Shown here: one piece after another, positions 1-10,268 of the stretch
How positions within the stretch are numbered: the first letter of the stretch is position 1
Layout: every line of letters begins with the position of its first letter
Virus record (IMG/VR): IMGVR_UViG_2563366845_000009
Location: 1 to 10,268 of that record
DNA from: a virus
Lineage: Duplodnaviria > Heunggongvirae > Uroviricota > Caudoviricetes
DNA: 10,268 nt
Strand: one strand, 5' to 3'
Program-made: the position numbers and the translations under genes
Notes under the pieces: model-generated
What the model saw: the letters and a program-made list of their open reading frames with translations, nothing else
What the model was told of the DNA's origin: nothing
Databases searched by the model: none

Positions 1-1242
1 ATGGCACGAAAAACCACCCCACTAACTATTACGGAGATCAAAAACGCACGACCAGGGGAAAAGGAATACACCCTGCAGGATGGCGGAGGATTATTTCTTC
101 TGGTGAAACCCTCCGGATCAAAAATCTGGCGTTTTACGTACTACCGCCCGGCAGATAAAAAACGGACTATCATCAGCCTCGGATCGCTGAATGATGTTTC
201 CCTGTCCGATGCCAGAGAACGACGGAATGAATACAGGTCACTCATAGCGAAGGGAGTTGACCCACAGGACCACGAACGCCGGAAACGTGAAGCAGAGAGT
301 CGGAAAAAGGGCAACACGTTCGAAAAAGTTGCCTCGGACTGGTACGAGATGAAAAAAGGCCAGAATCTGGCTTACAACACGATTAAGGATATCTGGCGAT
401 CCCTGGAAAAATACGTATTCCCGTACATCGGAAACACGCCAATAGATACCCTCACAGCTCGCCGCTTTGTTGAGATACTCACACCCATTAAAGCACGCGG
501 CAACCTGGAAACCCTGAAACGCGTTTTACAACGCATCAATGAAGTGATGGATTTTGCTGCCAACAGTGGGCTGATTGACATCAACACCGCCGCGAACGTC
601 CGCAAGGCATTCCCCTCACCCACCAAAAAGCACATGCCAACCATCCGACCGGAACAGCTACCGCAGCTAATGCACGATTTATCGGTCGCCAGCATAGAAC
701 GGCAAACCAGATTGCTGATTGAGTGGCAACTGCTGACCGTAGCACGCCCAGCCGAAGCAGCCGCCGCACGCTGGGAAGAAATAGATCTCGATGCCGAAAC
801 ATGGACGATTCCAGCCGGACGCATGAAGATGCGCCGTGACCACGTGATCCCCCTTTGCGGTCAGGCTATGGCTGTACTGGAAACCATGAAGCCAATCAGC
901 GCACACAGGGAACACGTTTTTCCCAGCCTTAAAAACCCGATGCTGCCAATGAGCAGCCAGACCGCTAACGCCGCATTGCGCCGGATGGGTTACGCTGGTG
1001 TGCTGGTGTCTCACGGATTACGCGCCATATTCAGTACAGCAGCGAACGAGGAAGGATTCGAGCCGGACGTAATCGAGGCCGCACTCGCACACGTGGACAC
1101 AAACGAGGTAAGGCGAGCATATAACCGAAGTAACTACCTGGAAAAGCGCGTGGTGCTTATGCGCTGGTGGGGGGAATTTGTAGAGGCCGCAGCTACCGGA
1201 GTGACCATAGCCAGTGGTAAAAGGGGTATCCGTGCCGTGTAA
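1..1242 (+). CDS. int: Site-specific tyrosine recombinase, P4-type integrase family (N-terminal arm-binding domain plus C-terminal catalytic domain)
   Basis: 413-aa ORF with stop at 1240-1242. N-terminus (KNARPGEKEYTLQDGGGLFLLVKPSGSKIWRFTY) is typical of the P4-integrase N-terminal domain; C-terminus has the HGLRA box and a conserved Tyr region (RRAYNRSNYLEKR). No homology search was run. Confidence 0.93.
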   Translation: MARKTTPLTITEIKNARPGEKEYTLQDGGGLFLLVKPSGSKIWRFTYYRPADKKRTIISLGSLNDVSLSDARERRNEYRSLIAKGVDPQDHERRKREAESRKKGNTFEKVASDWYEMKKGQNLAYNTIKDIWRSLEKYVFPYIGNTPIDTLTARRFVEILTPIKARGNLETLKRVLQRINEVMDFAANSGLIDINTAANVRKAFPSPTKKHMPTIRPEQLPQLMHDLSVASIERQTRLLIEWQLLTVARPAEAAAARWEEIDLDAETWTIPAGRMKMRRDHVIPLCGQAMAVLETMKPISAHREHVFPSLKNPMLPMSSQTANAALRRMGYAGVLVSHGLRAIFSTAANEEGFEPDVIEAALAHVDTNEVRRAYNRSNYLEKRVVLMRWWGEFVEAAATGVTIASGKRGIRAV

Positions 1243-1266
1243 CTGTACAAAAAACCAGTAAAAGCG

Positions 1267-1295
1267 ATGCAAACCATGCTAAACCATCGTATAAT
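1267..1295 (+). promoter_or_regulatory. Candidate sigma70 promoter: perfect -10 TATAAT (1290-1295) with weak -35 (ATGCAA, 1267-1272)
   Basis: Perfect TATAAT hexamer about 60 bp upstream of the AAGGAG ribosome-binding site and GTG of the next ORF; the -35 matches consensus at only 3 of 6 positions. Confidence 0.3.
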
Positions 1296-1358
1296 CGCCA
1301 CAACCCACCCAATACAGAGAGGAGTCACCCAAATCATGAAATTCAAGGAGCTATCCAG

Positions 1359-1601
1359 GTGTTTTTCAATGAAAAGGTATCCCCTGCTTGCGGCGAAGGG
1401 CTGCAACTGGCGTTAATGGCAAATCGTGAATTCTGGTCAACATACGATCCGGAAGACAAATCAACAGCCCCCACAAAACACGAGGTAGTCAGTTTTTTGC
1501 GCTCACGTGGCGCATCGAAAAACCTGGCTGAAAGCATCGACAAGGTGCTGAGACCCACCAGCCTTAAATGCGGTGGGCGGCCTAAGAAGTGGAAACGGTA
1601 A
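1359..1601 (+). CDS. Hypothetical small protein (80 aa, GTG start; alternative ATG at 1416)
   Basis: AAGGAG (1345-1350) lies 8 nt upstream of GTG 1359; stop TAA 1599-1601 is followed immediately by a terminator hairpin. No recognisable motif. Confidence 0.4.
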   Translation: MFFNEKVSPACGEGLQLALMANREFWSTYDPEDKSTAPTKHEVVSFLRSRGASKNLAESIDKVLRPTSLKCGGRPKKWKR

Positions 1602-1607
1602 TCACAA

Positions 1608-1636
1608 TAGCGGCCCCTTGCGGTCGCTATTTTTTT
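1608..1636 (+). terminator. Rho-independent terminator candidate
   Basis: Imperfect 8-bp stem (TAGCGGCC / GGTCGCTA, one G-T wobble) at 1608-1629 followed by a run of seven T (1630-1636), directly after the stop at 1601. Confidence 0.45.
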
Positions 1637-1678
1637 GCAGAAAGAAAAGCGTAATCAATGAGATAAAAAACAGTGAGT

Positions 1679-1694
1679 ACCGTTTTAAAACGGT
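1679..1694. promoter_or_regulatory. Perfect 16-bp palindrome ACCGTTTTAAAACGGT upstream of the AlpA-family gene (candidate operator; alternatively part of a hairpin/terminator with the T-run at 1703-1707)
   Basis: Reverse complement is identical; extended by outer arms AGTACC (1676-1681) / GGTACT (1696-1701); lies about 80 bp upstream of the GTG at 1772. Confidence 0.35.
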
Positions 1695-1771
1695 GGGTAC
1701 TGTTTTTCCCGCCCTGCCCTGTTTTACCGTATTTATCACCGGAATACGCCGGATTAACGAGGTAAAACATA

Positions 1772-1978
1772 GTGGAAACAATCAGAAAAATACTTACCCG
1801 TCAGGAAGTAAAAAATATTCTGCGCATCAAGGCAGACAGTTCGCTACAGGACATGATCAACGCCGGAAAATTCCCGAAAGGCTTCAAAATCGGTCTGCGT
1901 CGTGTTGGCTGGTATGAAGATGAAGTGCTGGCCTGGCTGAAAGAGCGCGAGGAAGAAGCGCGCGGAACGGCTGCGTAA
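1772..1978 (+). CDS. alpA: AlpA-family (MerR-like HTH) phage transcriptional regulator / excisionase-like protein
   Basis: 68-aa ORF, GTG start with GAGGT 7 nt upstream; sequence (ILRIKADSSLQDMINAGKFPKGFKIGLRRVGWYEDEVLAWLKER) matches the conserved AlpA/Vis-family pattern, including the VGW motif. Confidence 0.82.
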   Translation: METIRKILTRQEVKNILRIKADSSLQDMINAGKFPKGFKIGLRRVGWYEDEVLAWLKEREEEARGTAA

Positions 1979-2260
1979 TGGTGTGAGGCGTAACGCGATG
2001 AACATAACAAAAAGCGCCCCGTTGCCGGAGCGCCCTTGCGAACAATTAACCTGCTGCGAAAAAAATGGATCAGTGCAGGGGAATTATATCAACCGTGTGG
2101 CGAAGCGCCACAATTGCCGGATAACAGGCAAAGAAAAGGCCACCAGTCACGGCGGCCCTGCGACACAAATTTCGCGTTATCCCCAACGCATGAGCATCGC
2201 CAACAATGCCACATTTGCGGCTGGTGGGCAATGTGATCAGTGTGCTGGCTTGCTGGTGGG

Positions 2261-2440
2261 CTATTCCTGCTCTTTGGCTTTGCGCCGCTGGCGGCGTTTG
2301 ATCTCGCCTTGCATTGACGCAATGATGAATTGTGATGTGCTTTCGCCTGATTCTTTCACTGATTCCATGGCGTTTACTATTTCGTGTGGTACACGAGCCT
2401 TTAGAGCTTGTGATTTTGCGTTTTTTGTACCCGTTGCCAT
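2261..2440 (-). CDS. Small ribbon-helix-helix (Arc/MetJ/CopG-like) DNA-binding protein, putative repressor
   Basis: Internal ATG of the 120-aa minus ORF at 2438-2440, preceded by GAGGAA (6-nt spacer); 59 aa, MATGTKNAKSQALKARVPHEIVNAMESVKESGESTSQFIIASMQGEIKRRQRRKAKEQE. Pattern is beta-strand (LKARVP), helix A, G-x-S turn (SGEST), helix B, then a basic tail. Transcribed divergently from the promoter at 2502-2541. Confidence 0.55.
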   Translation of the reverse strand: MATGTKNAKSQALKARVPHEIVNAMESVKESGESTSQFIIASMQGEIKRRQRRKAKEQE

Positions 2441-2501
2441 TTCTATTCCTCTGGTGGATTGGTGGGGGACAGTATACACAGAAAAAGCACAAATAAAACT
2501 C

Positions 2502-2541
2502 TTGACGTGGGCCACACCTAAAACATATAGTGGGCCACACC
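2502..2541 (+). promoter_or_regulatory. Candidate sigma70 promoter (TTGACG-N18-TATAGT) overlapped by two direct repeats of GTGGGCCACACC (putative operator)
   Basis: -35 TTGACG 2502-2507; -10 TATAGT 2526-2531; exact 12-bp repeats at 2507-2518 and 2530-2541 (23 bp centre to centre), each containing a GTGG..CCAC half-palindrome. Sits between the divergent RHH gene and the downstream + strand gene block. Confidence 0.45.
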
Positions 2542-2639
2542 TTGAAATTATCAAGGCGCATAAATGCAAAGCCCCGCAAGTGTCGTTACCACTCGCAGGG
2601 CTTCTAACCACCAACGATAGCAACGGTATCGAGGTAGCT

Positions 2640-3179
2640 ATGTTAAATCATACCACACACCCGCAAGGGTGGGACTCGCACAACCTGAATAAAGCGGGTA
2701 TGAAAAACCTGTTGATCGCCACTGCCAGCCAGGGCTATGATTTACCCGCACCAGCAAAATCTGGTGCCGGGATTGGCGTCCTGGTATTTAACGAAGCGCA
2801 CAACACGCGCCCTGCGTGTTTTTTTGTGCCGGATAGTCACACCTTATCAATGGTGGGCTGTATGGGGGCGGAGCAATCCGCGCCGGGTTCTTCGTTAACC
2901 GGTTACGCCAACCCTGTACAGTCCACCGCCAGCGAAATTGGCGTTTCCTGCGGTGGGTTTATTAAACCTAACGAAGAGGCTGCCAACATGGCTACTACCC
3001 CTACCCTTATACATTCCCAAACTGCCTTTATCTGGCGCTTTATCATCTTTGGCGCGTCAGAATCTCAAATCATCCACGTGACCGCCTGGACAGAACGCGA
3101 AGCGCGTAACCATTGCCCGTCCGGTTGTGTCGCTGTATTCGCCGCCCGTATTCGTCAGGAGGTGCGCCATGTGCAATAA
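2640..3179 (+). CDS. Hypothetical protein (179 aa), first gene downstream of the putative operator-controlled promoter
   Basis: ATG 2640 preceded by GAGG (5-nt spacer), in frame with the long 1983-3179 ORF whose 5' portion overlaps the antisense RHH gene and the promoter; typical coding composition; no recognisable motif. Alternative start at ATG 2700. Confidence 0.45.
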   Translation: MLNHTTHPQGWDSHNLNKAGMKNLLIATASQGYDLPAPAKSGAGIGVLVFNEAHNTRPACFFVPDSHTLSMVGCMGAEQSAPGSSLTGYANPVQSTASEIGVSCGGFIKPNEEAANMATTPTLIHSQTAFIWRFIIFGASESQIIHVTAWTEREARNHCPSGCVAVFAARIRQEVRHVQ

Positions 3180-3429
3180 CACCCGTCCGGATGCAACCAC
3201 CGAAGCTATCAAAACGCTGATGGATGCGCTGATTGATATTTCTGTTATCGCAGACAAAGCGCATAAGCACGCCACCACTGAAACAGAATATGCCGGGGCT
3301 TTCGTTCCTCACTCACTGGCTGTAATGCAACTTAGTGCTGATATGGCGCTGAATGAGGCTAAAGCCATCCTGATTGCTGATTGTGAAAATGGGGGGGGGT
3401 TATGCGTGATGATCGTTTTAATTCCCTGA
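3169..3429 (+). CDS. Hypothetical small protein (86 aa)
   Basis: Strong AGGAGG (3157-3162) 6 nt upstream of ATG 3169; overlaps the stop of the upstream gene (coupled). Its 3' end contains a G9 homopolymer (3391-3399). Confidence 0.5.
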   Translation: MCNNTRPDATTEAIKTLMDALIDISVIADKAHKHATTETEYAGAFVPHSLAVMQLSADMALNEAKAILIADCENGGGLCVMIVLIP

Positions 3430-3623
3430 AACAGGAATTTTCCGGCGTTCCTGATGATGCGGCTGATGCGCTTTCGTCAATATCTGAAATTATGCGGGTG
3501 GCTTTTTTCTTTCTTTGCACTGATGAGCACAGAGATACAGGGCTAAATATTCTTGATATTGCCGCTAACTATGCTGATTTCGTGACAGAAGCTGTTTTAA
3601 GAAAAACGACGGACGGGGATTAA
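3402..3623 (+). CDS. Hypothetical small protein (73 aa)
   Basis: ATG 3402 lies immediately after the G9 tract (G-rich ribosome-binding site); overlaps the previous ORF by 28 nt in the -1 frame; stop TAA 3621-3623. Confidence 0.45.
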   Translation: MRDDRFNSLKQEFSGVPDDAADALSSISEIMRVAFFFLCTDEHRDTGLNILDIAANYADFVTEAVLRKTTDGD

Positions 3624-3624
3624 T

Positions 3625-3858
3625 ATGCGTGATATTTACCACGAAACAATAGACCGCGCATTTCTTGCACTTTCTCACAGTGAAAGCATGATGGAAATAT
3701 TGCGCATATGGCTTGAAACACTTGGCGACAATGAACGCGACAAACAAAAATCAAGAATTGCCACGGCATTAATAACGCTTCTTGAGCCTGTAATAATGGA
3801 GCTACAAGAAATAGACCTATTGCACGACAGATATAAAGAACAGCACACCGGAGAATAA
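3625..3858 (+). CDS. Hypothetical small protein (77 aa)
   Basis: ATG 3625 is 1 nt after the previous stop, GGGGA 5 nt upstream; acidic/helical composition. Confidence 0.5.
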   Translation: MRDIYHETIDRAFLALSHSESMMEILRIWLETLGDNERDKQKSRIATALITLLEPVIMELQEIDLLHDRYKEQHTGE

Positions 3859-3863
3859 AAATA

Positions 3864-4163
3864 ATGAAACTTAAATATTCTGGCTTTACTGCCAGCGGCC
3901 CCGCTCGGCCTGAAATCCGCCCCGGCGATATTTTCAAAGATAAATACGGCGGCACTGTAACGATTAAAAGCGTGGCGGGACGGTGTGTTACTTACCGCCG
4001 TGATGGGTACGGCTATGACTGCGTGATGCCTGTTTATCAGTTCCGGCGTGATTTTTCTCTGGTACAGAACGCAACACGCGGTAAGCCCACCAGCAGGGAA
4101 AAAGCACGGGAAAATATTAAGAAAATAAAAAGCATGCTCAGCGCATCCAGAGGTAAAAAATGA
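3864..4163 (+). CDS. Hypothetical small basic protein (99 aa)
   Basis: ATG 3864 with GGAG upstream; stop TGA 4161-4163 overlaps the helicase ATG (ATGA coupling). Basic C-terminal tail. Possibly related to small proteins found upstream of replication genes in enterobacterial islands, but not verifiable here. Confidence 0.5.
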   Translation: MKLKYSGFTASGPARPEIRPGDIFKDKYGGTVTIKSVAGRCVTYRRDGYGYDCVMPVYQFRRDFSLVQNATRGKPTSREKARENIKKIKSMLSASRGKK

Positions 4164-5566
4164 AACTGGCACCGAACGTAAAACTGTTACCGAAAGATAA
4201 ACACACTGAGGCGGTTATTTTTGCGGGTGATAATGCTCACTCCTTTGCAGAACATTACATGATTGCACAGGCCAAAAAAGCAGGCGATCCCATCCCTCCG
4301 GTTTACCTGGGCCGTTATCAGTTAAGCGAACTGGACAATTTACAGATTGTTGATGAAGGACGATACAGAGCAAAGGTCATACGCGCCGGAAACCTGGACG
4401 ATATGCAGATGCTGACCATTGCCACCAAACTGGCGATCGCAGGTGTCCAGGAAGCACGGTTACTTTCAGAGAATTTCGAACTGCTGGAGGACTGGAGCGA
4501 GCAACTACCGCGGCTTAAAGAAACCTGGGAACGCGGGGAAAGTCTGGTCATGAATGGTGGAAAGCGAAAAATCACACTTCCCATCTCATGGGGTTCTGAG
4601 GGATTCGACGCGCAGCAAAGCTACGTAATTAAGGGGCTTATTCCGGCTGAGTCATTATGCAGCACCTACGGGGCCAGCGGTTCTTATAAATCGTTCCTGG
4701 CTATTTCCTGGTCGTGCCATGTTGCCACAGGTATGGCATGGGGAGGCCGCAGGGTAAGTAAGGGCGCTGTTATCTATATCGCTGGCGAAGGCAGTATGGG
4801 CGTAAAACGCCGCGTTAAGGCGTGGGAGATAACCCATGACAAGGTGGTTACAGATTTGTGCATCGTTAACGCGCCTGTCTTCCCCGCATCGCCTGACTAT
4901 GTGGAGCAGGTTATCAGGACTGCCGGACTTGTTAAGAGCAGAACGGGCGAAAATGTGCGGCTGATTGTGATCGACACGCTGGCCCGTTGCTTTGGTGGAA
5001 ATGATGAAAATGATTCCCGCGATATGGGCGCATTTATCCAGGGGTGTGACGCGATAAAGCAGGCCACAGGGGCCACGGTGCTGGTGGTTCACCATTCCGG
5101 CAAGGATGAAACAAAGGGGGCGCGCGGTTCCAGCGCATTCCGTGCCGCGCTTGATGCAGAGTACCGAATCAGCCGGGAAAATTCAGAGGTTACAGCACTG
5201 GTGGCGGCGTGTACGAAGATGAAGGACGCAGAGGAGCCAAAAGAGAGTGCATACGATCTTAAAAGCGTGGAGGTGTTCACCGATACAGATGGCGAAGAGA
5301 TTGTGTCCATGGTGGTGATTGACGTTCCCCGCGCCCCTGCTGAACTGGAGCGCATAGAGGAGGCCGGGAACAAGACGGAAAATCACACGGCTTTATGGGG
5401 TTGTATCCGGTCGCGTATACAGCATGGTGATAAATGTACGATCCCGCTGCTACGTGATGACATGAAAAAGCTGGGATATGACACAAAACACCTTAAACGA
5501 TGGTTAGCCAAACTGGAAAAAGACGGCGTGATTTGCGTCGATGGGGATGATGTTCACCCACTGTAA
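4160..5566 (+). CDS. Replicative helicase, RepA / AAA_25 (RecA-like, DnaB-superfamily) ATPase
   Basis: 468 aa; Walker A-like GASGSYKS, Walker B-like hydrophobic stretch ending in Asp (RLIVIDTLARCF), and the VLVVHHSGKD motif typical of RepA-type helicases; GAGG ribosome-binding site 6 nt upstream; followed immediately by the iteron array. Confidence 0.82.
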   Translation: MKLAPNVKLLPKDKHTEAVIFAGDNAHSFAEHYMIAQAKKAGDPIPPVYLGRYQLSELDNLQIVDEGRYRAKVIRAGNLDDMQMLTIATKLAIAGVQEARLLSENFELLEDWSEQLPRLKETWERGESLVMNGGKRKITLPISWGSEGFDAQQSYVIKGLIPAESLCSTYGASGSYKSFLAISWSCHVATGMAWGGRRVSKGAVIYIAGEGSMGVKRRVKAWEITHDKVVTDLCIVNAPVFPASPDYVEQVIRTAGLVKSRTGENVRLIVIDTLARCFGGNDENDSRDMGAFIQGCDAIKQATGATVLVVHHSGKDETKGARGSSAFRAALDAEYRISRENSEVTALVAACTKMKDAEEPKESAYDLKSVEVFTDTDGEEIVSMVVIDVPRAPAELERIEEAGNKTENHTALWGCIRSRIQHGDKCTIPLLRDDMKKLGYDTKHLKRWLAKLEKDGVICVDGDDVHPL

Positions 5567-5766
5567 AAAGTGGGCGTTAAAAGTGGGAGTAGTGGGTAAT
5601 TTAACTGGAATTTAACAAAATCGCCCACTTTCCCACGTGTATACATCCCAAAAAGTGGGCACTAAAAAAATACTTATGAAACAGTACGATATAAAACCAC
5701 AAAATCCCAGGTGGGACGAAGTGGGAAACCATGAAAAGTGGGCAGAAAAAGTGGGCACAGGTGGGC
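5565..5766 (+). repeat. Iteron-type replication origin: nine direct copies of (A)AAGTGGGC in two clusters, two inverted copies, and an AT-rich spacer
   Basis: GTGGG cores on + at 5570, 5583, 5592, 5656, 5711, 5721, 5738, 5751, 5761; inverted CCCAC at 5624-5628 and 5632-5636; AT-rich 5598-5620 (AATTTAAC twice) and 5661-5705; immediately 3' of the helicase gene. Confidence 0.7.
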
Positions 5767-5768
5767 GC

Positions 5769-6020
5769 ATGACAAGAAAAACCAGAGATAAGACAGCACC
5801 AAAATATAAAGCGTTAGACATGACAGAGCACGCCTTAAAGGTGGCAATCAGAACTATAGACCGCCACGCCGGAGAAGGATACGCGAAAGCACATCCCGAA
5901 CTGATAAGCGCATTCATGACCACGGCGGCGGCAAACTTTGCCACGCTGACAGAACGGGAGATTGCCGAAGCGGAACTGGTGACAACCATCAACGTTAAAA
6001 CCGGAGAGCAGACAGCATGA
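5769..6020 (+). CDS. Hypothetical protein (83 aa), translationally coupled to ssb
   Basis: ATG 5769 with GGTGGG 5 nt upstream; the longer 5637 start would run through the iterons; stop TGA 6018-6020 overlaps the ssb ATG 6017. Confidence 0.45.
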   Translation: MTRKTRDKTAPKYKALDMTEHALKVAIRTIDRHAGEGYAKAHPELISAFMTTAAANFATLTEREIAEAELVTTINVKTGEQTA

Positions 6021-6439
6021 CAGCACAGATAGCGGCTTACGGGCGGCTGGTGGCTGACCCGCAGTTAAAGACCACCAGCAAAGGGACACAAATGGCGATG
6101 GCGAGTATGGCGGTTCCCCTGCCGTGCAGCCAGGCCGATGACGGAACGGCGACGATGTGGTTATCCGTCCTGGCGTTTGGCAGACAGGCCGACGCACTGG
6201 CAAAGCACCACAAAGGCGAACTCGTGAGCGTGGCGGGTAACATGCAGGTAAGCCAGTGGACAGGCCAGAACGGCGAAACGCGGCAGGGCTGGCAGGTTAT
6301 CGCAGACAGCGTAATCAGTGCGCGAACGGCGCGACCGGGCGGCAAAAAAGGCCAACAGGGGCAGGCCACTGATGCACTGAACAGGGCAAAACAACAGGCG
6401 GGAAATGATGATCCGTACGGGGATAACATACCGTTTTAA
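6017..6439 (+). CDS. ssb: Single-stranded DNA-binding protein (short SSB with acidic C-terminal tail)
   Basis: 140 aa; N-terminus (AYGRLVADPQLKTT, then QWTGQNGETRQ) fits the SSB OB-fold pattern; Gly/Gln-rich linker; C-terminal DDPYGDNIPF resembles the conserved SSB tail (E. coli ends ...DDDIPF). Confidence 0.85.
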   Translation: MTAQIAAYGRLVADPQLKTTSKGTQMAMASMAVPLPCSQADDGTATMWLSVLAFGRQADALAKHHKGELVSVAGNMQVSQWTGQNGETRQGWQVIADSVISARTARPGGKKGQQGQATDALNRAKQQAGNDDPYGDNIPF

Positions 6440-6456
6440 GCAACGAGTGACAGAAG

Positions 6457-6478
6457 CCGGGATTTTCCCGGTTTTTTT
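6457..6478 (+). terminator. Rho-independent terminator downstream of ssb
   Basis: Stem CCGGG(A)/(T)CCCGG (6457-6471) followed by seven T (6472-6478). Confidence 0.6.
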
Positions 6479-6527
6479 ACGGGTCCTCCCGGTGGAGTGG
6501 CCTTACCACGGGGCGGGAGCGGCGCGG
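6472..6527 (+). other. cos-like site, copy A (cosQ/cosN-like core with a divergent right half)
   Basis: 6472-6516 (TTTTTTTACGGGTCCTCCCGGTGGAGTGGCCTTACCACGGGGCGG) is identical to 9009-9053; the next 11 nt match copy B at 8 of 11. Contains dyad CCCGGTGG-N10-CCACGGGG and the ACG|GGGCGG junction resembling the lambda cosN nick site. Confidence 0.5.
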
Positions 6528-6740
6528 AAAAAGGCTGGTTTTTGCATTTTCATGGCGGCGGCAGCATGTGTGATAATTTATTGATAATTAAAAAATATTT
6601 CCGTTTTCACCTGTACAATATTTTTTTCGCCCTGTCATTAGACCAGTTTGTAATTAATTGAAATATATAAATAAATCCGTTTTTCACCTGCCAGGTGGAG
6701 TTGCCAGTGTCAAAACGTGTTCAGATGGCGGGATATTTAT

Positions 6741-6763
6741 GCCGGATTTTCTCCGGCTTTTTT
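6741..6763 (+). terminator. Second rho-independent terminator-like hairpin in the ssb-capsid intergenic region
   Basis: GCCGGA-TTTTC-TCCGGC (6741-6757) followed by TTTTTT (6758-6763). Confidence 0.45.
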
Positions 6764-6865
6764 GTGTCTGAATCTGACTAATCTGTTTTCATGATAGAAA
6801 TATATTTATCTACCACTTTTATCGATCAATAATGCGCGCAGTTTAGTCAGTAAGAGGAAGTTACT

Positions 6866-7075
6866 GTGAATTGTATTAATGACCTGAACACAGGCGAGGT
6901 AAGAGGTGGTTCCGTTCATCTGGATGCGCAGACCGTTATGCGCCTTAAGCAGTACAGGATCGACCACATAAATCATCATCCTGGCCAACCATTACCAGGT
7001 GTGGCGCAGATTGTCAGACACGCAGTTAACGCGTGGCTTGATAAGAATGGTTTTGCATCTGGGGGTGAGCAATGA
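6866..7075 (+). CDS. Hypothetical small protein (69 aa), translationally coupled to the protease-capsid gene
   Basis: GTG 6866 with GAGGA 7 nt upstream; stop TGA 7073-7075 overlaps ATG 7072; basic region (VHLDAQTVMRLKQYRIDHINHH) could bind nucleic acid. Confidence 0.5.
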   Translation: MNCINDLNTGEVRGGSVHLDAQTVMRLKQYRIDHINHHPGQPLPGVAQIVRHAVNAWLDKNGFASGGEQ

Positions 7076-8985
7076 ATCACTGGTACACCATTAAGGCGGC
7101 GGGTGTTCGCGGAGCGGCAGAAATATCCATCTATGAAGAAATTGGCGGCTTCGGTATCACCGCGAAGCAGTTTGCGGAAGACCTGAAAGCCCTGGGCGAT
7201 GTCTCACATATCGACCTGCGGATCCATTCGCCAGGTGGTGACGTGTTTGAAGGCATCGCCATCTATAACCTGTTACGGAATCATCCGGCAGAAATTACGG
7301 TTTATATCGATGGTGTTGCGGCTTCAATGGCTTCGGTTGTCGCAATGGCTGGCGATCGTGTTGTGATGCCGGAAAACGCCATGATGATGATACATAAGCC
7401 GTGGGGTATCTCTGGCGGAAATGCTGGTGATATGCGTGATTATGCTGATTTGCTGGATAAGGTGGAAACCGTGTTAATCCCTGCTTATGCCAGAAAAACG
7501 GGCAAATCAGCACAGGAAATTACCGCCATGCTGGAAGATGAAACCTGGATGGACGGGAAAGAATGCCTTAAGCAAGGTTTTGCTGATGAATTGTTGCCAT
7601 CCGTCAGAGCAATGGCGCGAATTGAATCGAAACGCACAGGAGATTTTTCACACATGCCGGAAACCATTAAAGGAATGATTACCCCGCCACAGGGAGCAGC
7701 CAATATTGCTGGTAATGAACAGAAGCGCATCAACGGAATAAGTGAAGTGTTTAGCCTGTTCGGCAGTCGTTACGACGGGATCAAAATGGCGTGCCTGGAA
7801 GATGCATCATGTACACCGGAGATGGCCCGTGAAAAGTTGTTGAACGAGATGGGGCGCGAGTCCACGCCATCAAATAAAAATACCCCGGCTCATATTTATG
7901 CCGGTAACGGGAACATAACAGGTGATGCAATTCGTCAGGGGCTTTATTCTCGTCTCGGGTATGAACGCCCAGAGCGGGGAAATCCTTACGCGATGATGAG
8001 CCTTTTTGAAATGGCCCAGGCATCACTAACGGATCGTGGTATCAGTGTTGGCGGTTTTTTAAATCGCTCGCAGGTCGTTAATGCAGCTTTCACACACAGC
8101 AGCAGCGATTTTTCTCATATTCTGGCTGGTGGTGCTGAAAAATCAGTACTGAAAGGCTGGCAGGACAGCGGCGAAACGTTTCAGAAATGGACGCGTACCG
8201 GATCGCTTTCAAACTTTCATGAAGCAAAGCGCGTTGGTCTGAATGGTTTTTCAAAGCTGGATAAAGTACCGGAAGGTGCGGAATATAAATACATCACCAC
8301 CAGAGATAAAGGTGTACCTATTGCGCTGGCCACGTACGGGAATATTTTTTCCGTTACCCGTCAGGCCATTATCAACGATGACCTGACCCAGTTAACTACA
8401 ATCCCCATGGCGATGGGGCGTGCGGCCGCCAGAACAGTAGGTAATCTGGTTTATCTTCTGTTAACCAGCAACGGCAAATTTACGGATGGTAAAGCGTTAT
8501 TCCATGCCGATCATAAAAATCTTATTGCGAAGGATATGGACATGGAGGGGCTTAACGAAGCCCGTAAGCTGATGCGACTACAGGAGGATGCCAACGGCGA
8601 CTCCCTGAATATTACCCCCGCTTTTGTTCTGGTCCCTGCTGCGCTGGAGTCTGCCGCACATCGCGCCATTCTGTCATCGTCATCACTCTTTCCGGTTGAT
8701 GGTGAGGGCACTATCAATCAGAACCCCGGCATCATTAACGTGGTGAAAGATATGGCTGAGGTTATTGTTGAGCCACGTCTTGATAAGAACAATAACAAGG
8801 AGTGGTATGTAGCCGCAGCGAAAGGGATGGACACGATAGAGGTCGCTTATCTTGATGGTATTGATACGCCATATCTTGAGGAGCAGGAGGGCTTTACTGT
8901 TGATGGTGTCGCCTGGAAGGTGCGCATAGATGCAGGTGTTGCGGCCCTCGATTATCGTGGACTACTGAAATCGAGTGGAGCATGA
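7072..8985 (+). CDS. Fused prohead protease (ClpP/S14-like serine protease) and HK97-fold major capsid protein
   Basis: 637 aa; N-terminal ~200 aa has the ClpP-like catalytic Ser context (GVAASMASVVAMAG) and His context (MMMIHKPWG); the C-terminal ~400 aa is consistent with a Mu gpT / HK97-type major head protein; an ORF of this length with no internal stops is strong coding evidence. Confidence 0.88.
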   Translation: MNHWYTIKAAGVRGAAEISIYEEIGGFGITAKQFAEDLKALGDVSHIDLRIHSPGGDVFEGIAIYNLLRNHPAEITVYIDGVAASMASVVAMAGDRVVMPENAMMMIHKPWGISGGNAGDMRDYADLLDKVETVLIPAYARKTGKSAQEITAMLEDETWMDGKECLKQGFADELLPSVRAMARIESKRTGDFSHMPETIKGMITPPQGAANIAGNEQKRINGISEVFSLFGSRYDGIKMACLEDASCTPEMAREKLLNEMGRESTPSNKNTPAHIYAGNGNITGDAIRQGLYSRLGYERPERGNPYAMMSLFEMAQASLTDRGISVGGFLNRSQVVNAAFTHSSSDFSHILAGGAEKSVLKGWQDSGETFQKWTRTGSLSNFHEAKRVGLNGFSKLDKVPEGAEYKYITTRDKGVPIALATYGNIFSVTRQAIINDDLTQLTTIPMAMGRAAARTVGNLVYLLLTSNGKFTDGKALFHADHKNLIAKDMDMEGLNEARKLMRLQEDANGDSLNITPAFVLVPAALESAAHRAILSSSSLFPVDGEGTINQNPGIINVVKDMAEVIVEPRLDKNNNKEWYVAAAKGMDTIEVAYLDGIDTPYLEEQEGFTVDGVAWKVRIDAGVAALDYRGLLKSSGA

Positions 8986-8992
8986 CAACAAG

Positions 8993-9015
8993 GGCGGCGA
9001 TAGCCGCCTTTTTTT
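8993..9015 (+). terminator. Rho-independent terminator downstream of the capsid gene
   Basis: GGCGGC-GATA-GCCGCC perfect 6-bp stem (8993-9008) followed by seven T (9009-9015); the T-run is also the first 7 nt of the cos repeat. Confidence 0.6.
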
Positions 9016-9090
9016 ACGGGTCCTCCCGGTGGAGTGGCCTTACCACGGGGCGGCAGACGCGCGGGTTTTCGCTATTTATGAGCCTTTTTC
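9009..9090 (+). other. Lambda-like cos site, copy B (cosQ/cosN plus proximal cosB), directly upstream of the small terminase gene
   Basis: Window CCACG|GGGCGGCAGACG|CGCGGGTTTTCGCTATTTATGA (9043-9082) compared with the lambda left end as recalled from memory (GGGCGGCGACCT CGCGGGTTTTCGCTATTTATGA): predicted 12-nt cohesive end GGGCGGCAGACG (9048-9059), followed by a 22-nt match to lambda. Upstream TACGGGTCCT matches the lambda right-end motif. Confidence 0.65.
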
Positions 9091-9192
9091 GGGTGCTGGT
9101 GGTGGTTTTGTTGTTCGCTCTATCTCTATGAATAAAAAGGGAAAGATAAAACAAATACACCAACCTGAAACATTACTTAAGTGGGGATATTG

Positions 9193-9735
9193 ATGAAATC
9201 GCACCTGATGAACAAAAAAAACATGGCGCAAAGCTGCCGTGTAAGTGCGACAGCGTTCGACAAGTGGGGAGTGACTCCCGTTGAACGTAAAGGCCGCGAG
9301 GCGTTTTATGATGTTGCCAGCGTAATAGACAATCGGGTTAGCAATGCAATTAACCAGATTACAGACGACAAAGGCGAGATTGATAATGATGAGCTTTTGC
9401 GAGTCAGGATCAGATTGCTGACAGCGCAGGCGGAGGCGCAGGAGCTTAAAAACGAGCGCGAACGCGGCGACGTGATTAGTACGGAATTTTGTATATATGC
9501 GCTTTCAAAACTGGCGAGTCAGATTTCATCTATCATGGACAGCCTGCCGCTTACCATGCAAAGGCGCTTCCCACAGATGACCCCCGCCATGCTGGATGGC
9601 CTGAAAAAAGAAGTTGTCAGAGCCTGTAACGCATGCACAAAACTTGATGAAAACATCCCGCGAATGCTGTCCGATTATCTGATGGAAACTACCGGAAATG
9701 TGTCTGATAAGTTTCAGCCGGATAAAGACAAGTAA
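9193..9735 (+). CDS. Terminase small subunit, lambda Nu1-like (winged-HTH cosB-binding)
   Basis: By recollection of lambda Nu1: LLTAQAEAQELKNERERGDVISTEFCIYALSKLASQISSIMDSLPLTMQRRFPQ aligns with RLTRAQADAQELKNARDSAEVVETAFCTFVLSRIAGEIASILDGLPLSVQRRFPE, and LDENIPRMLSDYL with LDELIPGLLSEYI. Start is ambiguous (GTG 9181, ATG 9193, ATG 9208); 9193 gives 180 aa. Confidence 0.85.
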   Translation: MKSHLMNKKNMAQSCRVSATAFDKWGVTPVERKGREAFYDVASVIDNRVSNAINQITDDKGEIDNDELLRVRIRLLTAQAEAQELKNERERGDVISTEFCIYALSKLASQISSIMDSLPLTMQRRFPQMTPAMLDGLKKEVVRACNACTKLDENIPRMLSDYLMETTGNVSDKFQPDKDK

Positions 9736-9753
9736 CGTAGTGCACAATGACCG

Positions 9754-9776
9754 AAGCCAGTTTACTGACTGGCTTT
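9754..9776 (+). terminator. Weak hairpin / possible terminator after the terminase gene
   Basis: AAGCCAGT-TTACTG-ACTGGCTT 8-bp stem (9754-9775) followed by only TTT. Confidence 0.3.
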
Positions 9777-9896
9777 CAGCGTTGCGCTGGTGGGAGTTAT
9801 GCGTCAGTGATGAACAAAAAATAATCGAAATCGACACCGAAAAATAAAACATCAAGTCATATCAATATATTGCATTGGTGGTGATGACGAATAAAA

Positions 9897-10268
9897 ATGC
9901 AAAAACTAGCCTTTTTCCGCGATGCTCCCGCCCCGTGGCAGGGCACCCCACCAGGAGGACCCGCCATCACTATGGAGGCCATGACCATGACCGAGACCGA
10001 AGCGCTCGGGATAATCCGCAGTATTACCGGAATCAGCCAGCAGGCTGACGAACAGGCCACGCAGCCGGATACAGTCACCGCTGAAAATTACGCGCGTGTG
10101 ATGGCTGAGGTGATGCGCCGTGACGGTATCGAGCTTAATGGCGTGGATATACGCAACATACGCACCAGAGTTCTGGAGATGTTGTCGTACCGTCGCCGCG
10201 TGCAGATGTACCAGGAGAAAGAAAAAATTACGTACCAGTGGAAGAAGCCGGAGCGGTTACGGCGATAA
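9897..10268 (+). CDS. Hypothetical protein (123 aa from ATG 9897; alternative 98-aa start at ATG 9972)
   Basis: Open frame ending at TAA 10266-10268; ATG 9897 has no Shine-Dalgarno; the in-frame ATG 9972 has AGGAGG (9953-9958) but a long 13-nt spacer. No recognisable motif. Confidence 0.4.
   Translation: MQKLAFFRDAPAPWQGTPPGGPAITMEAMTMTETEALGIIRSITGISQQADEQATQPDTVTAENYARVMAEVMRRDGIELNGVDIRNIRTRVLEMLSYRRRVQMYQEKEKITYQWKKPERLRR

Follow-up and report, generated by a model that had tools for sequence, protein, structure and literature searches.

The stretch of DNA described here (the window) comprises 10,268 nt of the IMG/VR record IMGVR_UViG_2563366845_000009, assigned to Caudoviricetes. The chromosomes of Escherichia coli RM11911 and RM13752 match it at 100% over its full length, with one G in a homopolymer run as the sole difference. 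The RM11911 chromosome was used for the flanks, and K-12 MG1655 served as the empty site. In RM11911 the element is bordered by yejM and the tRNA-Pro gene proL on the left and by yejO on the right, and ordinary chromosomal genes continue for 12 kb outward each way; no portal, large terminase (TerL), tail or lysis gene was found inside the element or adjoining it in these flanks. Comparison with the empty MG1655 site defines a direct repeat of 14-16 bp, TCTCGTG(CC)GACCAAA, as the attachment (att) sequence. The att core, TCTCGTGCCGACCAAA, lies at the 3' end of proL (L001 11778-11793), and the right boundary is an imperfect att copy, TCTCGTGGACCAAA (L001 22790-22803). The island between the att cores measures ~11,010 bp, and arm-type repeats, TTTTTAGCTACACGTT(T/A)AGCTATACG (repeat family D7), lie inside both of its ends. 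The window spans the integrase start codon to the stop codon of the last gene, such that ~207 bp are missing on the left and ~535 bp (to attR) on the right. We conclude with high confidence that the window represents most of an ~11-kb phage-inducible chromosomal island (PICI) of the Gram-negative EcCICFT073 lineage, integrated at proL between yejM and yejO, and that this island is a recombinant with a proposed helper-dependent life cycle.

The features of the island are collected in Table 1. A preliminary description of the window listed an integrase, an AlpA-family regulator, a switch region, a helicase with iterons and a single-stranded DNA-binding protein (SSB), a protease-capsid fusion, a cos site and a Nu1-like small terminase (TerS). 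All of these elements are present, and profile searches of the window proteins (Pfam, PHROG, NCBIfam) matched the integrase, AlpA, RepA, SSB, capsid fusion and TerS families. The same description read the DNA as a satellite as opposed to a complete prophage, which is borne out by chromosomal flanks that lack tail and lysis modules, by att repeats at a tRNA gene, and by collinearity with EcCICFT073. The att repeat and tRNA target that it expected in the flanks were found at the 3' end of proL; the right-hand flank, where portal and large terminase genes had been looked for, contains neither up to attR, and the next gene is yejO.

Table 1. Features of the proL island and the evidence by which each was assigned (positions are those of the window; ORF, open reading frame).
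Feature	Position	Strand	Evidence and remarks
attL	~207 bp left of window		tRNA-Pro 3' end
P4-type tyrosine integrase, 413 aa	1-1242	+	Pfam Phage_integrase, Phage_int_M, Arm-DNA-bind_3; NF007246 560 bits, full length
Small hypothetical ORF, 61 aa	1416-1601	+	RefSeq CDS; no family match
Terminator-like hairpin	1606-1631		Terminator scan; directly after 61-aa ORF
21-nt palindrome	1666-1707		Inverted repeat I9; upstream of alpA
AlpA-family regulator	1772-1978	+	PF05930, E 4.5e-8, 33 bits vs cut-off 21
YlcI/YnfO-family small protein	2261-2440	-	NF041551 67 bits; phrog_949
Best sigma-70-like promoter, TTGACG-18-TATAGT	2502-2531	+	Promoter scan, 10/12 matches
Two direct repeats GTGGGCCACACCT, overlapping promoter	within 2502-2551	+	Repeat D11
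isrK-like RNA / a1-b1 target element, own terminator	2735-2824	+	Rfam isrK 80 bits (gathering 50)
C4-type antisense RNA	2846-2933	+	Rfam C4 75 bits (gathering 45)
Icd-like small protein, first gene of rightward operon	2988-3179	+	NF033153 60 bits; phrog_29966, phrog_1743
phrog_2512-family gene	3169-3623	+	PHROG
Small conserved PICI gene, phrog_2196	3625-3858	+	PHROG
Small conserved PICI gene, DUF4222	3864-4163	+	Profile search
RepA-family (AAA_25) replicative helicase/initiator	4160-5566	+	PF13481, E 4e-43; sits in EcCICFT073 primase slot
Replication origin	5566-5767		Two sets of (A)AAAGTGGG(C) iterons around AT-rich DNA, directly 3' of repA
Conserved hypothetical gene, phrog_1231	5769-6020	+	PHROG
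SSB	6017-6439	+	Profile searches
cos A	6457-6700	+	Terminator hairpin + T7, cosQ, cosN GGGCGGGAGCGG 6511-6522, complete phage-type cosB 6523-6700
Small ORF, 69 aa	6866-7075	+	phrog_4934 (E 2.7e-30); overlaps capsid gene start (ATGA)
ClpP-like prohead protease / scaffold-like linker / HK97-fold major capsid fusion, 637 aa	7072-8985	+	NF045540 909 bits vs cut-off 475; Phage_capsid_4; CLP_protease
cos B	8993-9192	+	Terminator + T7, cdtI-type cosQ, cosN GGGCGGCAGACG 9048-9059, island-specific cosB up to terS
Nu1-family TerS, 180 aa	9193-9735	+	phrog_57, full length
cos C	9891-9963	-	Inverted cosQ-cosN, cosN GGGCGGGAGCAT 9933-9922; ~30 nt cdtI-type right flank; no cosB; repeats I1-I4
Conserved terminal PICI gene, 93 aa, phrog_1561	9987-10268	+	74% amino-acid identity to last EcCICFT073 gene

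EcCICFT073 is induced through alpA and has its own origin. Phages lambda and phi80 transfer it by way of two cos sites, and its genes include c1499 for a capsid protein and c1500 for a decoration protein (PMC6092414); its induction, cos-dependent transfer and Rpp function have been shown experimentally (PMC6092414, PMC6739421). The gene order of EcCICFT073 (int, alpA, ylcI on the minus strand, an icd-like gene, small genes, DUF4222, replicase, a hypothetical gene, ssb, a small ORF, capsid, cos(+), a DNA-recognition gene, cos(-) and the 93-aa gene) is the same as that of the window, and five blocks align at 77-96% DNA identity, including 2252-2693 (96%), 3347-4236 (82%) and 5817-6345 (81%). The two islands are also alike in their lambda-like cosQ-cosN units, in an iteron origin 3' of the replicase, and in a length of ~11 kb. 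In contrast, EcCICFT073 has a primase where the window has a RepA helicase, lambda E-like capsid and D-like decoration genes where the window has a ClpP-major capsid protein (MCP) fusion of the cdtI/mEp460 type, and RppA where the window has a full-length Nu1-family TerS. Furthermore, EcCICFT073 has two cos sites, whereas the window has a third that bears a complete phage cosB; the cosN sequences of the window differ from that of lambda; the window has a C4/isrK RNA module that EcCICFT073 lacks; and the att site of EcCICFT073 is roxA/phoQ in place of proL. The preliminary description had suggested that a lambda-type cos combined with an island's own capsid gene might be an uncharacterised arrangement. 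This suggestion does not hold, because EcCICFT073 has both and 21 of the 29 reference Gram-negative PICIs carry a capsid gene (PMC10111431). Consequently, the island belongs to an established satellite family, of which it is an ordinary representative; its new parts are the junction at a cos site, the triple cos, a protease-capsid fusion maintained by selection and the C4 RNA module.

The sequence features that define Gram-negative PICIs (Fillol-Salom 2018, PMC6092414) recur in the island: an integrase at the left end (1-1242) with a specific att at a tRNA gene; alpA, with int, alpA, replication and packaging genes directed rightward; its own initiator with iterons immediately 3'; and a size in the 10-15 kb range (~11,010 bp) with no tail genes, lysis genes or complete head set. 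The definition further includes an att site that prophages do not use, as well as helper-phage-dependent induction, packaging and high-frequency transfer with interference against the helper; for the latter set, the resident prophage with its matching cos and a circular relative of 10.8 kb (both below) give indirect support only. Of the features particular to the EcCICFT073 type, the island has an island-specific cosB by the DNA-recognition gene and a second, inverted cos, but the slot for Rpp (144-153 aa, which forms a heterodimer with the helper TerS) holds the 180-aa TerS. Helper-embedded PICIs (PMC10111431) have the same backbone of DUF4222 and AAA_25 helicase genes, a capsid gene, and a same-slot TerS of the same clade (58% identity); they differ in that they integrate in a helper late gene, while the proL island is located at a tRNA gene far from its candidate helper. 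The cos-type Staphylococcus aureus pathogenicity islands such as SaPIbov5 are likewise satellites with a copy of the helper cos and a homologue of the helper capsid protein, but their sequences are unrelated, their host is Gram-positive, their capsid homologue Ccm is not fused to a protease, and they have no TerS of their own.

The preliminary description likened the window to both PICIs and capsid-forming satellites; the first likeness stands and the second does not. Capsid-forming PICIs such as EcCIEDL933 (10.1101/2022.09.08.507074) have the same int/alpA/rep backbone and, like the proL island, encode a capsid protein, a maturation protease and a TerS, which is the entire overlap with the capsid-forming gene set (MCP and protease, fused, plus TerS). 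A satellite of this kind would make its own DNA-filled capsids and steal only tails. It is, however, defined by portal, head-tail connector, HNH and TerL genes, in an island of ~15 kb, and none of these genes is present between attL and attR; the unassigned small ORFs, at 59-152 aa, are too small to encode a portal or terminase. This reading is refuted by gene content and carries a negligible probability. The phage origin of the capsid, TerS and cos sequences, together with a frameshifted early gene in the window and a frameshifted integrase in a sister island (RM8082, below), could alternatively indicate a lambdoid prophage in decay, from which the portal, terminase, tail and lysis genes are gone. 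Yet islands of the same compact 10-11 kb build, with a non-phage replicon, are found at several att sites and in several genera, a relative exists as a circular episome, experiments show that EcCICFT073 is a satellite (PMC6092414), purifying selection acts on the capsid gene, and no pseudogene fragments of tail or lysis genes were found. The island also has no immunity repressor, Q/late region, lysis cassette, TerL, portal or tail genes or their remnants, all of which are present in the prophage L020 of RM11911. A prophage remnant is thus very unlikely and, as with a P4-like satellite (below), was rejected on gene content.

Alignment with lambda, EcCICFT073 cos1 and cos2, HannyBb and cdtI identified three lambda-like cosQ-cosN units in the window, in the orientation +,+,-. 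Only the unit between the capsid and terS genes had been named from the sequence before; the copies at 6511-6522 (+) and 9933-9922 (-) are additional. At cos A the window contains a whole phage cosB of the cdtI type, with two 40-nt repeats (D4): positions 6511-6700 align at 90-92% identity with bases 1-190 of phages cdtI, Tritos and HannyBb, which reach to where the phage DUF1441-type terS starts. The right flank of cos B consists of a short lambda-like part followed by island-specific sequence. The series cos B(+), terS, cos C(-) has the position and orientation of cos1(+), rppA, cos2(-) in EcCICFT073. A search of IMG/VR found the exact cosN of cos B in only two contigs, both of satellite size. 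The one that was inspected has the same int, the 637-aa fusion, a 184-aa TerS ORF and +,+,- cos sites, but a primase replicon.

The origin of this arrangement is indicated by sister islands. Four islands of this PICI family were found at the proL site, and the sister islands fall into two coherent types, represented in RefSeq genomes by RM8082/Z1323CEC0004 and by EC43; no paper describing them was found. The RM8082/Z1323 type has RepA, the fusion capsid gene, two direct cos sites of the cdtI type and a DUF1441 TerS. The EC43 type has a primase, E/D-like capsid genes, an extra AlpA-like gene, a Nu1-type TerS and two inverted cos sites. Window positions 1-9064 are 92-99% identical to the RM8082 island, except in the early region 2252-3850. 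From ACGGGGCGG of cos B (cosN 9048) to its end, the window is 99.8% identical to EC43 (2 mismatches in ~1,220 nt), and just left of this point the two are unrelated; the chance expectation of ACGGGGCGG, from shuffles, is 0.1-0.2 per locus. Judging from these alignments, the island is a chimera of the two sister types with its crossover within 9 bases around the cosN nick, a placement that follows from where the 99.8% identity to EC43 starts and from the unrelated sequence to its left. The union of an RM8082-type left part and an EC43-type right part would account for the three cos sites. Since the crossover falls at cosN, cos sites appear to act as joints for module exchange. The sequence fits either of two routes to the join, homologous recombination in a short shared sequence or terminase cutting followed by end joining. 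The integrase of the RM8082 island (L004 3001-4241) is annotated as frameshifted, and that copy may therefore be immobilised.

The TerS encoded to the right of the junction aligns with lambda Nu1 at 36% identity over 93% of its length (E 1e-35), C-terminal region included, and with N15 gp1 at 47% identity. In lambda, the C-terminal region of Nu1 binds gpA. The closest phage TerS in a set of 50,697 genomes is 47% identical, and none is closer. Relatives are abundant in E. coli, Enterobacter and Citrobacter, and in 6 of 6 contigs inspected they sit in the same slot of PICIs; some of these PICIs are helper-embedded, inside lambda-type capsid genes, and others occupy the EcCICFT073 site. The PICI context of the relatives identifies this TerS clade, on sequence grounds, as a satellite lineage. 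Although the gene fills the rppA slot, BLASTP produced no alignment between TerS and RppA. An island with a 180-aa Nu1-family TerS that does not align with RppA probably works like the TerS-carrying PICIs and not via Rpp. Several homologues of TerS match both PF07471 (Nu1) and PF07278 (DUF1441). This double match suggests a divergent small-terminase family in DUF1441, which cdtI-type phages encode as the first gene after cos. In the metagenome and Logan contigs L012-L014, helper-embedded PICIs split a lambda E-type capsid gene, and terS is followed on the opposite strand by FRG-domain and DUF3892 genes that might serve as accessory or defence cargo.

The protease-capsid fusion is 57-58% identical to the versions in cdtI, mEp460, VT1-Sakai, Stx2 phage and the resident prophage of RM11911. 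The ClpP motifs are intact, both at the serine (GVAASMAS) and at the histidine (MMIHKP), and the satellite copies are short of ~28 residues of the scaffold-like linker of the phage proteins. The ratio of nonsynonymous to synonymous substitution rates (dN/dS) relative to the RM8082 copy is 0.13 overall and 0.03 in the MCP domain, at a dS of ~0.3, and relative to cdtI it is 0.19. Based on these ratios, strong purifying selection maintains the fusion in satellites of this lineage. One patch of 102 nt within the gene (7809-7910) is 92-93% identical to phage genes of the cdtI/mEp460 type, while the remaining gene is too diverged for megablast. The patch encodes a 29-residue stretch that is identical in the resident prophage protein and differs in the sister-island gene; it looks like gene conversion from a helper-type phage and is evidence for recombination with such a phage. 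Upstream, the 69-aa ORF that overlaps the capsid gene start has no similarity to its positional counterpart in EcCICFT073. RefSeq instead places a hypothetical ORF on the minus strand at 6807-6980; this strand choice is probably wrong, since the plus-strand ORF matches phrog_4934 strongly and overlaps the capsid start.

There are two ways to view the role of this protein. It may be mainly an anti-helper device, a poison or a subunit that redirects capsid size or shape, in which case the island would travel as multimers in helper capsids. This is a real possibility, albeit one that we would not favour. EcCICFT073 travels in helper capsids of full size and can be transferred without its capsid gene (PMC6092414), the ~11.0 kb island is about one quarter of the 45-47 kb helper genomes, and the fusion differs from the helper versions in both sequence and linker length. 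A capsid homologue with which a satellite redirects assembly is already known in Ccm of SaPIbov5 (PMC8569155). However, deletion of c1499 or c1500 left the interference exerted by EcCICFT073 intact, and its interference factor is Rpp (PMC6092414, PMC6739421). The dN/dS of the MCP domain and the intact protease also fit a fully functional shell protein. Under the reading that we prefer, the fusion is a diverged, selectively maintained satellite copy of the helper capsid gene, and its product most probably forms a shell on the helper portal, by itself or together with helper subunits.

A candidate helper is resident in RM11911. The prophage L020 (chromosome 21401-64232), next to tRNA-Ser/hyaA, is lambdoid and apparently complete, with Q, lysis genes, cos, a DUF1441 TerS, TerL, portal, a protease-MCP fusion, tail genes and J. 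Its early region is Rac-like (racR/ydaS/ydaT), its head module is of the cdtI type, and its tail fibre gene is annotated as partial. The cos-terS-terL stretch is 99.2% identical to that of cdtI, and its cos is ~90% identical to cos A of the island over cosB. From these matches, the resident cdtI-type prophage is a likely helper; the island lies at 1.49 Mb and the prophage at 0.04 Mb of the chromosome. Additionally, a circular 10,790-bp record deposited as a 'plasmid' (NZ_CP148328.1; L011, 1-10790) is a complete island of the same PICI family, with int, alpA, primase, a ClpP-MCP fusion, DUF1441, the 93-aa gene and one gene annotated as 'tail assembly protein'. The circle is consistent with island excision, and strain Z1323HEC0475, from which it comes, also carries a cdtI-type prophage.

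By its sequence, the island carries its own replicon, composed of the RepA helicase, the downstream iteron origin and the SSB. The origin contains at least 10 GTGGG-core iterons in two sets. Matches to AAAAGTGGGC with at most one mismatch number 7 against 1.16 expected, and 6 of the 7 fall within 5566-5756. The layout is that published for Gram-negative PICI origins (PMC6092414). A PADLOC scan of the unassigned small proteins and RepA returned no defence-system match, a tandem repeat finder run on the window returned only trivial short repeats, and Rfam and ORF scans from the end of the window to attR (535 bp) gave nothing credible. No tRNA was found within the window, the target tRNA-Pro being 209 bp outside.

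All assigned genes are on the plus strand except ylcI, which marks the left side of a divergent regulatory region (~2261-3179). In EcCICFT073-type PICIs, AlpA is the helper-triggered activator needed for induction (PMC6092414; preprint 10.1101/2022.09.08.507074). To the right of ylcI, positions 2502-2551 form a putative early rightward promoter with operators. The C4/isrK module that follows is absent from EcCICFT073 and from three sister islands. At the isrK-like element, the c4-a1b1 Rfam model scores 44.5 bits, just under its gathering score of 46.7. Read directly from the sequence, the C4 loop GTTCTTCGTTAA (2887-2898) has a 9-nt complement at 2788-2796 and a further one at 2969-2977, the latter in overlap with the Shine-Dalgarno sequence that precedes the icd-like gene; an RNA duplex scan of C4 against the operon gave long non-specific duplexes that did not discriminate, and it was replaced by this direct reading. 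The arrangement resembles immI of phages P1 and P7 (c4, icd, ant) in its C4-family RNA, its a1/b1-like targets upstream of an icd-like gene, and the complementarity of its loop to the icd ribosome-binding site. It differs in that no ant gene follows and the module heads a satellite replication operon. A 398-aa ORF at 1983-3179 traverses the isrK and C4 RNA genes as well as the ylcI promoter region and was for this reason not accepted as a real protein. A run of nine G residues at 3391-3399 (ten in RM11911 and RM13752) splits the phrog_2512-family gene, whose intact product is 152 aa, into ORFs at 3127-3429 and 3402-3623; the shorter run could be a sequencing error or a slippage-prone tract.

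A Pfam Phage_ASH match and a RefSeq 'ash family pseudogene' coincide with the isrK/C4 RNA genes (2700-2954), and this 'Ash' call is probably a translated RNA gene. The 'Ash' and Icd-like annotations, the P4-type integrase with its Arm-DNA-bind_3 domain, AlpA and the 11-kb size might otherwise recall a P4-like satellite. This is highly improbable, as Pfam, PHROG and NCBIfam scans found no match to Sid, Psu, Delta or the alpha primase-helicase, the 'Ash' match falls on RNA genes, and the helper-type sequences and cos sites are lambdoid and not P2-like.

The features of the island suggest a life cycle for this PICI that is modelled on EcCICFT073. First, a lambdoid helper would switch on alpA, and AlpA would then drive excision and the rightward operon, which the C4 antisense RNA may additionally gate by pairing with the ribosome-binding site of the icd-like gene. 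Next, the island would replicate from its own RepA/iteron/SSB replicon into concatemers that could be packaged by a cos-type terminase via two routes. In one, the DUF1441-type TerS and the TerL of a cdtI-type helper would use cos A directly. In the other, the island TerS would bind the island-specific cosB to the right of cos B and, through its C-terminus, recruit a lambda gpA-type helper TerL, thereby diverting packaging to the island. This second assignment follows from the resemblance of the TerS C-terminus to Nu1 and from large terminases of cdtI and lambda whose N-termini are not alignable. Portal, TerL, connectors and tail would all be supplied by the helper. As induction by the helper, packaging of concatemers and transfer are drawn by analogy with EcCICFT073, and the use of each cos site from sequence matches, we infer these steps rather than observe them. 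The modules of the island fit two helper lineages, and it may therefore have dual-helper capacity or be a partly mismatched recent recombinant.

Several observations weigh against this account. The island seems to mix two packaging types, cdtI for the capsid gene and cos A and lambda Nu1 for TerS. With modules so mismatched, and large terminases of the two lineages that cannot be aligned at their N-termini, the chimera could be partly non-functional. The cosN sequences of cos A, B and C differ from each other, such that packaging that starts and ends at different sites would give non-matching cohesive ends. Some part of the window is matched by 3,020 of 5,426 complete E. coli genomes, but its exact configuration is rare, being present in 3 of the 5,426 (mutually related) and in 2 IMG/VR contigs. 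One early gene is frameshifted in the window. Deletion of c1499 in EcCICFT073 produced no phenotype, so that a structural role of the capsid gene stays a proposal, and c1500 likewise has no known phenotype (PMC6092414). The AlphaFold model of TerS is weak (pLDDT 67, pTM 0.30, from a 15-sequence alignment), and a Foldseek search of the PDB with this model returned nothing significant, the best match being a MerR-family regulator at E 0.76. A PDB sequence search with TerS also gave no meaningful match and recovered neither lambda Nu1 (1J9I) nor RppC. Given the weak model and fold search, the N-terminal winged-helix region is predicted from the full-length Nu1 alignment and predicted secondary structure. 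Finally, helper identity, induction, cos usage and the pairing of TerS with TerL are, for this island, proposals drawn from sequence and from EcCICFT073.

A further-reaching proposal, which we consider doubtful, is that the island is a functional 'half-way' satellite between classical and capsid-forming PICIs. Such a satellite would build its shell from its own protease-capsid fusion on a stolen portal and use its own TerS to direct a stolen TerL, its three cos sites of two specificities would serve two lambdoid lineages, and cos sites would be the joints at which PICIs swap modules. If this is true, both the cdtI/mEp460/Stx-like packaging lineage, with its DUF1441 TerS, and the lambda-like Nu1/gpA lineage would be exploitable by one island.

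PICIs of this family, which are found in a large share of E. coli genomes, move genes at high frequency and interfere with lambdoid phages. Among phages, the nearest relatives of the proL island in capsid gene and cos include those that convert their hosts through the Shiga toxin (Stx) and cdt genes, and for this reason islands of this kind may affect the production and spread of toxin phages. Together with its sister islands, the island also makes two questions from the PICI literature testable. The role of their capsid genes can be addressed with a complete protease-capsid fusion that is under strong purifying selection, and the reason for multiple cos sites per PICI can be addressed in an island where the sites appear to differ in specificity and mark a recombination junction.

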